From Patescibacteria group bacterium (GTDB taxonomy: Bacteria; Patescibacteriota; Gracilibacteria; UBA1369; JBBTWW01), in contig JBBTWW010000134.1 of the NCBI GenBank assembly GCA_038062595.1, forward strand, positions 1-28,183: DNA of 28,183 nt, written 5' to 3'. The position numbers and the translations under genes were made by a program. The notes beneath the pieces are model-generated. The model was not told the DNA's origin. It worked only from the letters and a program-made list of their open reading frames with translations, and did no database searches. Each line of letters opens with the position of its first letter. Within the stretch, counting starts at the first letter, position 1. This document shows, in pieces, positions 1,499-21,187 of this stretch.

Positions 1499-1540
1499 AG
1501 CCGGCGATGTGCACATTTGCTATTTTAACCCACTTCACAC

Positions 1541-3922
1541 ATGAACGCTTTTAGAAAAGTGCTCTCTGTTTTTGCGTTAACCTCGCTAATTGCCGCAACG
1601 ACAGCTGTACAGGCTTCCAGCGACAAAAGTGCGGCAAATTTTCTAGCCGCAAAAGATGCAGTAGCCGCTATTACATTTATGCTCCCGTCCTCGCTAAAGC
1701 AGAGACTGAGCCAGTTGCTCGACACGATTCTGGTCGAAAGCGAGACACAGGCTCCGTCACAAAATCTTTTTATAAAAAAAATACGTGAGGGCGCGCCAAT
1801 CCACCTCGGCGTAGGCAAGGACGCGCAGAGTCTTGTACTCCTGGTACCGGCAACCGATGCCGAGTGGCAGGTCGTGATAGAGGGCGGTGCGGTACAGGAG
1901 ACACACAATGGTACCGACATTTATCTAGACTCATATAACACACCTGTCGCATGGAGCGACGGATTCATGCTCGTCAGTGAGAGCGCAGAATCAATAACCG
2001 CCGCACTGGACGCATCATCCGGTAGCGTCGCATCGCTGGCCGGTGATGCAAACTGGCAGGAGGTATCCGCCGACATGCTTGATAATCCATTTTTCTCCAC
2101 ATACTTCAGCCTTGCATCATTGGGAGACCTCATTAAGCAGTCTCTAGGTTCGAATGTCACGCCGGCAAATACCGATGATCTTTTGAAGATACTGGAAAAA
2201 GGCGGCGTATCGGCACGCGAAACCAGCGACGGATATGAGTTCAAAATGTCCATGTATGGCGACAAAGATTATATGACGGCAAATAATCTGTCATACAACA
2301 TGTCAGGCACTTACTCGCCGAGATTACATACTAAGATGCCAAATAATCAGGTTATTTTTTACACCTCTGCGTATAATACCAAGGCGGAATCCGAGATGTC
2401 CGATAAGCTCGTAAAAGACATAACCGGCCAGGAAACCGCTTTTCCTCCGATTGATTTCTCAGACTCTCTCGGTATAGACGTAACACTGGATATGAATGAG
2501 GATATCTACGGCATGCTGACGAAGGAAGTTGTATTTGCAATGCAAAGAAATCCAAACAACGTCGTACCATTTGTAACATTCATGGCTGATGTATCCGACA
2601 CGCGTCAAAAGGCGTTAAGTTTTGTTTCAAAAATGGAACAGGTACTGGATGCTGTAATGGAGCAAAACACGCCGGGCGTGTTTAAAAAGAGCACAAAAAC
2701 AATTGGCGGTAGCGAGATGCTCCTCTATACGATAGATCCTACAAAAGAGGAAAACTTTGACGGGCCACCCATGAAGCCATTCCCTCTTCTCATCGGTGTC
2801 ACTTCGGATAATATCCTTTTGATAACCTCTGATCCTGGAAAGGGGGCTGGATTCTTTTCAAGTGAGGGTTTACCGGCATTTACCGGAGACAACATCGCCG
2901 GCTTTGCCTATCTCAACATGAGAAATATATGGGACGCACTCGACGGATTCATAGCATGGGCTGAGGAAGTCGGCGGCGGCATACACGGCCCACCATTGGA
3001 TTTTTATCAGGGATACTTCACAATGCTTGAGACTGCCTATGGATTCTCAGACGCACTATTCCTCAGCGAGGCAGAGACTGCAGAGGCGCACGTCACTGTC
3101 TCAATCCATACGGATAACCAGAAGCATCAGACATTTGAGGAGTTTTCCTCGGTAATGAAGTCGCGCGATACCGACGGCGACGGTGTCTCGGATTATGACC
3201 AGCGTTTCCGTTATGGTCTGTCGGTAATGTCATACGACAGCGACGATGATGGTGTATTTGACTCTGCGGAGATACGCGCCGGTACGAATCCAAATGGCGA
3301 GGGACAGCTATTCAGCGATGTCGCTCAGGATGAGTGGTATACGGAAGACGTAGGTGATCTGTACGTGCGCGGAACTGTAAAAGGATATGAAGACCAGACG
3401 TTCCGGCCGGGTGCTCAGGTGAGCAGACGTGAGTTCACCACGATGGTTGTCAGGGCGTTTAATACAGATCTGGAAAAAACTTTTGGACTAAAAGTCAGCC
3501 TGTCCGGTACTCCGGAGATCTCCCCTTTCTCAGACCTCTCACCAAATGACTGGGCGTATGAATCCATCATTACGGCACAACGCCTGGGATTTGTGAACGG
3601 CTATAGCGATGGCACATTTAAACCAAACGATCCGATCTCACGCGCAGAGGCCGTGGCCATACTAAATCGCGCATCCAGCGTACTTCAGAAAAATCAGCTC
3701 GGTGCGATAGTGATAGAAGATCAAACCGATCCATCTCAATGCGAATTTAGCGATTCTTCAGATGCCTGGTATACAGACTCGGTGAATAACGCGTGTGCGC
3801 TCGGCGTCACAAAGGGCAAAAAGCCCGGCGAGTTCCGCCCATTGGACAAGGTGACGCGCGCAGAGTCCGCCGCGTTGATCAAGCGCGCCTTGGACGTAGA
3901 GTTCGCATATGGCGATTACTAG
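1541..3922 (+). CDS. Secreted S-layer-homology protein: signal peptide, DUF3352-like region, DxDxDG Ca-binding repeats, three C-terminal SLH domains
   Basis: Signal peptide ending AVQA. Repeats DTDGDGVSD and DSDDDGVFDSAEIRAGTNP. Three SLH repeats (FSDV..W..GYEDQTFRP..VSRREF; FSDL..W..GYSDGTFKPNDPISRAEA; FSD..W..G..FRPLDKVTRAE). The DUF3352 assignment is by resemblance only. Confidence 0.85.
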   Translation: MNAFRKVLSVFALTSLIAATTAVQASSDKSAANFLAAKDAVAAITFMLPSSLKQRLSQLLDTILVESETQAPSQNLFIKKIREGAPIHLGVGKDAQSLVLLVPATDAEWQVVIEGGAVQETHNGTDIYLDSYNTPVAWSDGFMLVSESAESITAALDASSGSVASLAGDANWQEVSADMLDNPFFSTYFSLASLGDLIKQSLGSNVTPANTDDLLKILEKGGVSARETSDGYEFKMSMYGDKDYMTANNLSYNMSGTYSPRLHTKMPNNQVIFYTSAYNTKAESEMSDKLVKDITGQETAFPPIDFSDSLGIDVTLDMNEDIYGMLTKEVVFAMQRNPNNVVPFVTFMADVSDTRQKALSFVSKMEQVLDAVMEQNTPGVFKKSTKTIGGSEMLLYTIDPTKEENFDGPPMKPFPLLIGVTSDNILLITSDPGKGAGFFSSEGLPAFTGDNIAGFAYLNMRNIWDALDGFIAWAEEVGGGIHGPPLDFYQGYFTMLETAYGFSDALFLSEAETAEAHVTVSIHTDNQKHQTFEEFSSVMKSRDTDGDGVSDYDQRFRYGLSVMSYDSDDDGVFDSAEIRAGTNPNGEGQLFSDVAQDEWYTEDVGDLYVRGTVKGYEDQTFRPGAQVSRREFTTMVVRAFNTDLEKTFGLKVSLSGTPEISPFSDLSPNDWAYESIITAQRLGFVNGYSDGTFKPNDPISRAEAVAILNRASSVLQKNQLGAIVIEDQTDPSQCEFSDSSDAWYTDSVNNACALGVTKGKKPGEFRPLDKVTRAESAALIKRALDVEFAYGDY

Positions 3923-3956
3923 TATCACATAGATCTTAAGGTAAATGTGACCGGCG

Positions 3957-19970: not shown

Positions 19971-19979
19971 AGCCCTGTA

Positions 19980-21134
19980 CTATTTCAAAACCTCTTCGGG
20001 TGACCTGTAGTGATTTTCCATATGCAGGTCTTTTGCCACGCGCTCGTAGGTGAGGTAGCCGGCGTGGGTGTTGAGACCAAGGGTGAGGGCGCGGTGCTTG
20101 CGTACCATTGGGATAATGCCGCCTGTAGCCATCTTGACGATGTACGGAAGAGTTGCATTTGTAATAGCCTGCGTGGACTGGCGTGATACCTGGCCGGGCA
20201 TATTGGTAATACAGCAGAAAATCTTACCGGCGCGCTCGTAGCGGGGACTCCTGTGTGTAGTTGGTTTTGCTCCCCATATGCATCCGCCCTGATCTATCGC
20301 AACGTCAACGATAACAGCGCCGCTGTGCATGGAACGAATCATTTTTTCTGAGACGACAGTTGGTGCCTTGGCGCCCGGAACGAGAACTGCGCCAATTAGA
20401 AGATCGGCCTTTGACACCCAGTGAGAGAGAGTTTTCTCATCAGATTTGATAACCTGCACGTTCTTAAAAAGATGTGGTCCGAGAATCTTTCGGAGCTCTT
20501 GTTTTCGTATAGCCACAACCTTTGGATTGATGTCGAGAAGTACTACCTCACCGCCCATGCCGCCTGCGGCACGTGCGGCCGCGGCGCCGACATGGCCGCC
20601 ACCTACGACAACAGTGAGCGCGGAGTCGGCGCCCGGAATCTTGCCGAGAGTCTTACCGACACCGCCGTATTTTTTTTGCATATAATTGGCACCATATTGA
20701 ATAGCCAATACGCCTGCTACATCACTCATCGGGGCAAGAAGAGGAAGCGAGCCATCTTTTTCCTGTACGGTCTCATACGCAATTGCAGTTACACCATTTG
20801 CGAGAAGTTCTTTTGTGAGCTCAGGATCAACGCCGGAGAGATGAAGATAAGTGAAGAGTGTCTTGCCATTCATGAGCTTCAGCCAATAAAACTCCTGCTT
20901 CACAGGCTCCTTGATCTTCATTATCAACTCCGCTTTTTTTACAATTTCAAATGGGCTGTCGTTGATGTGCGCTCCGGCTGAAACATAATCTTCATCAGCA
21001 TATCCCGATCCCCAGCCTGCCTGGCGCTCTACGTATACCGTGTTACCAAGTTTCACGAGTTTGCGTACTCCATCGGGAGTAAGAGCAACACGATTCTCAT
21101 TATCCTTTACCTCCTTCAGACAGGCGATGATCAT
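19980..21134 (-). CDS. ald: Alanine dehydrogenase
   Basis: KEVKDNENRVALTP, K.KEP, FTYLHL, AIAYETV, LLAPMS.VAG, GGG.VG, DLLIGAVLVPGAKAP, IVDVAIDQGG, NMPG..ST.A.TNAT. Confidence 0.95.
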   Translation of the reverse strand: MIIACLKEVKDNENRVALTPDGVRKLVKLGNTVYVERQAGWGSGYADEDYVSAGAHINDSPFEIVKKAELIMKIKEPVKQEFYWLKLMNGKTLFTYLHLSGVDPELTKELLANGVTAIAYETVQEKDGSLPLLAPMSDVAGVLAIQYGANYMQKKYGGVGKTLGKIPGADSALTVVVGGGHVGAAAARAAGGMGGEVVLLDINPKVVAIRKQELRKILGPHLFKNVQVIKSDEKTLSHWVSKADLLIGAVLVPGAKAPTVVSEKMIRSMHSGAVIVDVAIDQGGCIWGAKPTTHRSPRYERAGKIFCCITNMPGQVSRQSTQAITNATLPYIVKMATGGIIPMVRKHRALTLGLNTHAGYLTYERVAKDLHMENHYRSPEEVLK

Positions 21135-21187
21135 AAAACGATTGTTAAAATGGTATGAAATTAGATGAGAACTATTTGATGTAATTT

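Follow-up and report, generated by a model that had tools for sequence, protein, structure and literature searches.

The 28,183-nucleotide (nt) window analyzed here is contig C134 of a 1.12-Mb genome (148 contigs, 47% G+C) of a bacterium from the candidate phyla radiation (CPR), and the element in question is a short word, TTTAAY, that precedes the start codons of seven of its genes. The UvrB protein encoded in the window is most similar to those of metagenome-assembled genomes (MAGs) labeled “Candidatus Peribacteria” (65 to 68% identity), followed by those of Saccharimonadia, and all 40 of the nearest genomes compared (0.7 to 1.9 Mb in size) belong to the same order and to other families, so that, on this sequence evidence, the source is treated as a Peribacteria/Peregrinibacteria-type CPR bacterium. 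The genetic code is standard, with long open reading frames (ORFs) ending in all three stop codons.

On the forward strand, TTTAAC at positions 1524 to 1529 (context UAUUUUAACCCAC) lies 11 nt before the ATG at 1541 of a gene encoding a 793-amino-acid SLH-domain (S-layer-type) protein; an independent extended −10 box, TGATATAAT, is found at about 1490 to 1498, ∼27 nt upstream of the word. The other forward-strand site, TTTAAC at 19357 to 19362, is separated by 11 nt from the ATG at 19374 of a 70-amino-acid ORF (19374 to 19586) and follows a TATACT −10 box at about 19340 to 19345. The remaining five sites are on the reverse strand. TTTAAT at 5329 to 5334 stands 11 nt before the ATG at 5317 of a 120-amino-acid orphan ORF (4955 to 5317); given that the −10-like boxes TATAGT/TAATAT adjoin it directly upstream, this copy may lie at the extreme 5′ end of the transcript. 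TTTAAT also occurs at 9919 to 9924, 11 nt from the ATG at 9907 of a 235-amino-acid ORF (9200 to 9907), and at 13995 to 14000, 9 nt from the ATG at 13985 of a 332-amino-acid ORF; the latter copy overlaps a second TTTAAT at 13990 to 13995, and a TATAAT −10 box at about 14009 to 14014 gives this gene a leader of ∼17 nt. TTTAAC at 21144 to 21149 lies 9 nt before the ATG at 21134 of the alanine dehydrogenase gene (19980 to 21134).

The last site, TTTAAC at 17836 to 17841 (reverse strand), is 10 nt from the ATG at 17825 of a zinc-ribbon protein gene (16662 to 17825) and falls within the 23 nt that separate this ATG from the 3′ end of the tRNA-Arg(GCG) gene directly upstream (17849 to 17923, reverse strand), so that no separate promoter would fit between this tRNA and the motif. 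Read at full length, the ORF of this gene extends to 18089, and its extension (17826 to 18089, reverse strand) wrongly crosses the tRNA gene. The gene must in reality begin at 17825, where TTTAAC precedes the ATG.

Apart from the SLH-domain protein, alanine dehydrogenase, and the zinc-ribbon protein, the genes behind the seven sites are four ORFs without a Pfam match. Checked against the ORF starts, the coordinates and gaps of all seven sites given in the original prediction proved exact, and both of its near-matches are present: TTTAGC at 16031 to 16036 (reverse strand), 8 nt before the uvrB ATG at 16022 and ∼30 nt downstream of an extended −10 box, TGGTACAAT, and CTTAAT at 21884 to 21889 (reverse strand), 14 nt before the rpe ATG at 21869. 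In two of the relatives discussed below (G019 and G030), the word occurs mainly as CTTAA. A further leader of the TAAT type, AAAUAAUUUUUCUUUAGC-AUG at 22352 to 22370 (reverse strand), precedes the gene at 21893 to 22351 in a 12-nt same-strand spacer. Over the entire window, TTTAAY has 41 matches versus 40 expected, which is the chance level, so that the signal is purely positional.

Position and composition of the word across the genome

Genes were called with a simple codon-usage ORF caller, which returned 959 genes covering 80% of the DNA, with 889 usable starts; starts were assigned by the longest-ORF rule, which cannot favor any motif. TTTAAY with a gap of 9 to 11 nt was found at 37 of the 889 starts, compared to 5.1 expected from leaders mono-shuffled over −40 to −1, 6.5 from leaders shuffled over the AT-rich stretch −25 to −1, and 8.6 from rotated leaders; the maximum in 300 shuffling and rotation trials was 19. 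The original prediction had named genome-wide enrichment over AT-matched shuffled leaders as a check, to be refuted by a frequency no higher than leader AT content would give; with an ∼5-fold excess, that refuting outcome did not occur.

The tetranucleotide TAAC begins at −16 to −12 in 109 starts (12.3%), versus ∼12 expected from the upstream background and versus 0.95% of 5177 internal in-frame ATGs. By starting position, from −16 to −12, the counts are 16, 28, 26, 18, and 21, compared to ∼2.5 per position elsewhere. Enrichment grows with the length of the word, from 9-fold for TAAC to 15-fold for TTAAC, ∼28-fold for TTTAAC, and ∼40-fold for TAACCA and TTAACC (∼42-fold for the latter), and the most position-enriched words all begin between −17 and −12. 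With either pyrimidine in the fourth position, TAAY is found at ∼25% of starts versus 5% in a control window. The consensus can be written as W-U-U-A-A-C-(C/Y), with (U)UAAC as the informative core; G is nearly excluded around it. At the fourth base, there is a strong preference for C over T, and neither TAAA nor TAAG is enriched outside the reading frame. TAAT is only ∼2.4-fold enriched after in-frame TAA stops are set aside, and the TAAT/TAAA signal at −15, −12, and −9 is partly an in-frame-stop artifact of the longest-ORF rule; TAAC, in contrast, is enriched in all three frames. The gap to the ATG ranges from 8 to 12 nt, with a mode of 11. The earlier description of the motif as TTTAAY at 9 to 11 nt stands, accordingly, as regards a positional word and is refined to a (U)UAAC core with a gap of 8 to 12 nt, in which TAAT is a weak form.

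The leader base profile shows U at −17 to −15, A at −14 to −11, and strong depletion of G; the A residues of the word usually fall at −14/−13, and there is an additional A peak at −11. No purine peak is seen in the genome-wide leader base composition, and the Shine-Dalgarno (SD) words AGGA, GGAG, and GAGG are depleted near starts (2.2% versus 7.3% in the control window). The absence of AGGAG-like sequences was originally noticed in the seven leaders, and the consensus found in their place (core UAAC/UUAACC) is not complementary to CCUCC. Genes with TAAC have a slightly more ribosomal-protein-like codon usage (median of 0.780 versus 0.768; P = 0.007), a small effect. Counting TTAAC-N(x)-ATG genome-wide without any annotation gave 45 versus ∼21, which is too weak for a pattern search across genomes. 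Immediately before the start codon, at −1, U is found in 47% of the genes and G in 8%.

A rare SD-like word, AAGGAG, is present in the window at 24164 to 24186 (reverse strand), about −18 to −13 before a small ORF (23888 to 24163). This ORF overlaps its upstream neighbor by 11 nt; the AAGGAG lies within coding DNA, and its distance to the ATG is too great for a normal SD sequence.

Promoters, operons, and the leaderless class

When the 109 TAAC genes are aligned on the word, −10 boxes (TATAAT, TATACT, and TAAAAT, often TG-extended) appear upstream at varying distances. Among those with a spacer of >40 nt, a strong −10 box is present within 70 nt in 42 of 69 cases and ends 2 to 29 nt before the word. 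The converse, unbiased comparison started from strong −10 boxes at −70 to −28, which were present in 225 genes: of the 78 TAAC words downstream of these boxes, 48 are at −16 to −12 from the ATG, and these are spread over 7 to 29 nt from the box. A fixed distance to the ATG combined with a variable distance to the −10 box indicates that the word is tied to the start codon, within a leader of roughly 20 to 40 nt. Together with the shuffled leaders and the dependence on the fourth base, this geometry upholds the proposal that the signal is specific and start-locked rather than a reflection of AT-richness.

The word is present before the first genes of transcription units and before operon-internal ones. 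TAAC precedes 11 to 21% of divergent or long-spacer genes, is found in same-strand spacers of 11 to 40 nt, and appears repeatedly in the ribosomal-protein operon of contig C112, in which the TAA stop of the upstream gene often doubles as part of the word (in this operon, uL2 was located by Pfam, and the other gene names come from the conserved gene order). As a nontranslated control, the upstream regions of tRNA genes contained TAAC at −16 to −12 in 2 of 37 cases, a sample too small to be telling. Some leaders contain tandem related G-free words, such as those at 18314 to 18345 and 7673 to 7700 of contig C112 (both on the reverse strand), and the leader of the presumed EF-Tu gene reads CUAAUCCCUAAUCCC.

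A different signal marks another set of genes. TAnnnT starting exactly at −12 was seen 103 times genome-wide versus ∼25 expected, and its extended form, TGnTAnnnT, starting at −15, was seen 38 times versus ∼3 expected. A −10 box at −12 to −7 ends 6 to 7 nt before the A of the ATG, which is the geometry of leaderless mRNA. In the window, such boxes are located on the reverse strand at 7786 to 7797, 23312 to 23323, 23855 to 23866, 26379 to 26390, and 28051 to 28062, before genes starting at 7785, 23311, 23854, 26378, and 28050, respectively, and on the forward strand at 9993 to 10004, before the gene starting at 10005. Among the genes without a signal at their longest start, 73 have a TAnnnT box before a downstream ATG, which indicates that longest-ORF starts are often too long and that the leaderless class, as judged from these boxes, probably comprises around a fifth of the genes or more. 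TAAC does not qualify as a leaderless −10 box, since it peaks at −15/−14 and the frequency of the final T is 0.34; both signals, TAAC and a −10 box at −12, occur together in only 8 genes. The leaderless class, which the original prediction did not connect with the word, is the sharper of the two, is represented in the same window, and is as position-locked as UUAAC. There are thus two start regimes in this genome and in its order, UUAAC-leadered and leaderless. An unsupervised expectation-maximization motif search with a width of 8 fused the leaderless −10 box with TAAC, and fixed words were used instead.

Relatives of the same order and their 16S rRNA

The same pipeline was applied to 60 to 200 kb of each of a number of related genomes. 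TAAC without SD words was found in 10 of the 11 sampled genomes of the order, which represent nine families. Counts at −16 to −12 were 16 versus a background of 1.8 in G001 and 8 versus 0.8 in G019 (both of family f2), 15 versus 0.8 in G003 (f4), 15 versus 2.5 in G035 (f5), 9 versus 0.7 in G037 (f7), 10 versus 1.3 in G009 (f10), 7 versus 0.8 in G016 (f17), and 9 versus 1.7 in G018 and 15 versus 1.8 in G031 (both of f19). SD enrichment was absent from all nine of these relatives, and all of them except G001 (4 versus 3.6) have the −10 box at −12. In G030 (f18), CTTAA/TTAA takes the place of TAAC, and SD enrichment is absent as well. As a positive control, SD words were detected in members of other CPR classes, with 38 versus 7.5 in G076 and 54 versus 15 to 17 in G061 and G062, whereas G043 showed neither an SD nor a TAAC signal. 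The sole sampled genome from another order of the same class, G042, contributed 53 genes, too few to judge. As far as these sequences go, the order is characterized, in the genomes sampled, by a lack of SD use combined with UUAAC and leaderless starts. TAAC is weakly enriched in the three SD-using CPR genomes, too, and the G061 and G062 loci contain leader repeats of the types (UUUUAAC)n, (UAUAACC)n, and ACUGUUAAC, which suggests that UAAC-type leader words alongside SD sequences may be a wider CPR habit.

No 16S rRNA gene was found in the assembly of the window genome, so that 16S tails could be read only in its relatives. Most of their 16S genes end in GGAUCACCUCCUUU; the tail is an intact CACCUCCUU in G001, G009, G016, G035, and G037, and the core has decayed to CCUCU in G018 (ACCUCUUUU), UCUCU in G031 (AUCUCUUUU), and UUCCC in G030 (CAUUCCCUU). 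G018 and G031 represent f19, the family nearest to this genome by UvrB (73% identity). The original prediction considered pairing of the word with an altered 16S tail that would have lost CCUCC and gained a complement to UUAAY. Loss of the CCUCC core was indeed seen in G018, G031, and G030, but not in most of the relatives, and the complement was absent: none of the 12 relatives' 16S genes scanned contains GUUA(A) within its last 100 nt, and the 3′ tails of G035 and G031, which were read separately, lack it too. The same word is used with intact and with decayed cores, and there is no SD enrichment with either; the motif and the tail therefore do not covary. Given this lack of covariation and the lack of a complementary tail among the relatives, pairing with an altered tail is not supported. 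The decayed cores, which occur in families f18 and f19, are consistent with relaxed selection on an anti-SD sequence that is not used in initiation.

In the 3′ ends of the relatives' 16S rRNAs (L001 to L012, L132, and L166), the anti-SD sequence is followed by its own complement, giving a potential hairpin with compensatory changes: CUCC-UUUCUA-GGAG in most of them, CUCU-UUUUAU-AGAG in G018 and G031, and UCCC-UUGUA-GGGG in G030. This hairpin was considered as the cause of SD blindness and rejected: G062 and G076, which are CPR genomes with SD use, have the same potential, so the hairpin alone explains nothing. Pairing of UUAACC with a GGUUGG in helix 45 was rejected as well, since helix 45 of the relatives reads GGAUGG.

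The prfB (RF2) gene of the window genome, located on contig C52 at about 11120 to 11400 (L199/L200), with the remainder at the end of contig C137, retains CUU-UGA-C, the classical site of +1 frameshifting, downstream of a purine run (GGGGAAAGGA; GGGGAAAGGACUGU). The 0 frame ends in ...QRGKDCL*, and the +1 frame continues as DLPRTELRIGELE. In ten relatives whose prfB 5′ end could be read through, the gene is uninterrupted, and none of 29 relatives has a frameshift site at that place. The prfB site hints that this organism may have an ordinary pyrimidine-rich tail with an anti-SD sequence still usable for frameshifting, as in Flavobacterium.

Candidate functions and known systems

The word can be described as an mRNA element of short (about 20 to 40 nt), G-poor 5′ leaders and intercistronic spacers that would serve as an SD-independent ribosome-binding or start-selection signal. 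With the AUG in the P site, the stretch occupied by the word (−17 to −12) would be at the platform/exit side of the 30S subunit, where the word could help the subunit dock and place the AUG without any pairing to the 16S 3′ tail. The proposal of docking without tail pairing draws on the position that the word shares with the A-rich element of Bacteroidia at −14 to −11 (see below). The reader of the word is more likely to be a platform or protein component, such as a short bS1 or its neighbors, than the anti-SD. Within the window genome, an rpsA-like ORF of 425 amino acids scored 237 bits, below the family cutoff, and covered model positions 13 to 347, and bS21 gave only a weak match of 23 bits; this agrees with the published pattern for CPR bacteria, in which bS1 mostly has 3 to 4 domains and bS21 is frequently absent from Peregrinibacteria (PMC9297842). 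Overall, an SD-independent docking or start-placement element that is read at the 30S platform, and not by the 16S tail, appears to be the probable function of the word; its role in translation and the identity of its reader are inferred.

Several points weigh against such a function. Most starts lack the word (∼12% have TAAC and ∼25% have TAAY), so that genes do not require it in general. Overlapping or tightly coupled genes seldom have it (4% at gaps of ≤10 nt, near background), a scarcity that is consistent with translational coupling but is not decisive. Of the 15 operon-internal TAAC words at gaps of 11 to 25 nt, 8 coincide with the upstream TAA stop. In a few leaders, such as that of the gene starting at 5317, −10-like boxes are so near that transcription may begin at the word or downstream of it. 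In addition, the evidence for a translational function is solely geometric, the gene starts come from a crude longest-ORF caller, and the tail evidence comes from relatives.

Some of these observations could also be expected if UUAAC were a mere by-product of composition, that is, of A/U-rich, G-poor, unstructured leaders and of the TAA stops of upstream and in-frame ORFs. The leaders are strongly G-depleted from −20 to −1, TAAA and TAAT show the period-3 pattern of in-frame stops, about half of the TAAC words in 11- to 25-nt spacers are upstream stop codons, and most genes do without the word. However, shuffling or rotating the same leaders gives 5 to 9 TTTAAY matches versus the 37 observed, TAAC is enriched in every frame and before divergent and long-spacer genes, AT-richness does not account for C at the fourth base, and families with otherwise unrelated intergenic DNA have this word in common, all of which makes composition an unlikely explanation. 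A transcription-level element, such as a −10-like box, a discriminator, or an initial-transcribed-region signal of short-leader transcripts, is less probable still. It could draw on the many −10 boxes that stand right against the starts, on the merging of both signals by the expectation-maximization search into one TA-rich motif at −15 to −12, and on the increase of word frequency with spacer length, as for promoters. Yet TAAC lacks the invariant last T of the −10 hexamer (T at the sixth position, 0.34), it keeps a fixed distance to the ATG but stands anywhere from 7 to 29 nt from upstream −10 boxes, copies of it are found within the ribosomal-protein operon and immediately behind a tRNA gene, and just 8 genes have both signals.

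Pairing with rRNA fares no better. A new SD analogue, in which the word would pair with a changed 16S 3′ tail of this particular organism (e.g., ...GUUAA), could be entertained because its own 16S gene is missing from the assembly, because the CCUCC core has been lost in the closest family, f19 (G018 and G031), and in G030, and because the word takes the place that the 5′ portion of an extended SD helix would occupy; “Candidatus Peribacter riflensis” has also been listed among SD-scarce organisms without CCUCC (PMC10783764). The absence of GUUA/GUUAA from all of the relatives' tails scanned or read, the sharing of one word by the canonical CACCUCCUU and three different decayed cores, and the prfB CUU-UGA-C site, whose purine run GGGGAAAGGA hints at an ordinary pyrimidine-rich tail, render this possibility very unlikely. 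The only conserved GGUUAA in the relatives' 16S rRNAs is at position ∼1030 (about 1088 to 1093 in Escherichia coli), in the helix-37 hairpin, which, in 70S-mRNA structures, lines the cleft that normally holds the SD helix. UUAAC(C) could be, in principle, a second kind of ribosome-binding site (RBS) that pairs with this universally conserved loop and not with the 3′ tail. If so, this pairing could also account for the phage T7 epsilon enhancer and for the fact that UUAAC is weakly enriched in other CPR classes. The flanks of the word do not extend such pairing, with G being the rarest base after UAACC and U, not C, preceding UUAAC; an extended pairing with the loop was rejected for this reason, and the helix-37 model as a whole is regarded as quite improbable.

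The SD-independent element read at the 30S platform has its closest parallels in the Bacteroidia. In Flavobacterium johnsoniae, translation is stimulated by an A-rich element at −14 to −11 and drops by about 30% if A-12 or A-13 is mutated; with the AUG in the P site, this region is said to be close to bS1 (Baez et al. 2019; PMC6847099). In the GeneMarkS-2 classification, genomes of group B have non-SD RBSs about 9 nt from the start, and those of group C, from Actinobacteria and Deinococcus-Thermus, combine leaderless genes with an RBS (Lomsadze et al. 2018; PMC6028130). The window genome resembles Bacteroidia and group B in making no use of SD sequences although the anti-SD is often retained, in having a short word, unrelated to SD sequences, that keeps a fixed distance of ∼9 nt to the start and is seen before first as well as internal genes, and, as regards Bacteroidia, in the placement of A residues at the same positions (−14 to −11), in a region thought to be near bS1. 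It differs in that the word, U-U-A-A-C, has a 5′ run of U and favors C, in place of a run of A; that it precedes a minority of the genes (about 12 to 25%), beside a large leaderless class; and that the organism belongs to the CPR, in which bS21, a part of the anti-SD pocket of Bacteroidia, is reported to be frequently absent (PMC9297842). Also, the Bacteroidia element is backed by mutational data, while the word described here is known from sequence alone. The likeness to group C is in the dual regime, with a −10 box 6 to 8 nt before the ATG and another signal at a similar distance; in group C, however, that second signal is the SD sequence, and here it is UUAAC, with SD words depleted. The genome combines features of the group B and group C types, with a different and more specific word.

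Olins and Rangwala reportedly described, in 1989, the epsilon translational enhancer of phage T7 gene 10, UUAACUUUA, for which pairing with positions 458 to 466 of E. coli 16S rRNA was proposed, along with the idea of an SD-independent enhancer. The UUAAC pentamer is common to both, and many leaders in the window genome read UAACUUUU; unlike the word described here, epsilon lies further upstream of an SD sequence. No conserved GUUAA, the epsilon-type complement, was found in the helix-17 region of the relatives' 16S rRNAs (equivalent to positions 458 to 466 in E. coli), and the resemblance may be coincidental.

Within the lineage itself, “Candidatus Peribacter riflensis” was reported in 2024 to be SD-scarce, with 7% SD genes and no conserved CCUCC (PLoS One; PMC10783764). 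The SD depletion and the decayed tails seen in the present work agree with that report, although most of the relatives analyzed here keep CCUCC; the section of that paper on SD-scarce organisms names no replacing motif and no leaderless class. A search of the literature on Peribacteria/Patescibacteria and SD/anti-SD sequences retrieved no description of the motif, and in PMC6851277, on Gracilibacteria, and PMC12641261, on promoters, SD terms are confined to the references or a legend. Loss of SD and anti-SD sequences in some CPR groups and loss of bS21 in this lineage are known, while the motif itself, recognized here from sequence comparisons, appears to be undescribed in the literature found.

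For genome annotation, these observations mean that starts in these genomes will be wrongly placed if a gene caller expects SD sequences or chooses the longest ORF, as exemplified by the gene starting at 17825, whose longest ORF runs through a tRNA. A dual model, with a leaderless −10 box and UUAAC, should improve the annotation of Peribacteria MAGs. SD-free initiation is poorly understood outside Bacteroidia, and the CPR literature found reports the loss of the SD system and not its replacement. An order-wide, C-preferring word at −16 to −12, present in genomes whose 16S tails range from canonical to decayed, provides a concrete and mutable element, and the genome series of this order offers natural material for the question of why the anti-SD sequence is kept or lost.

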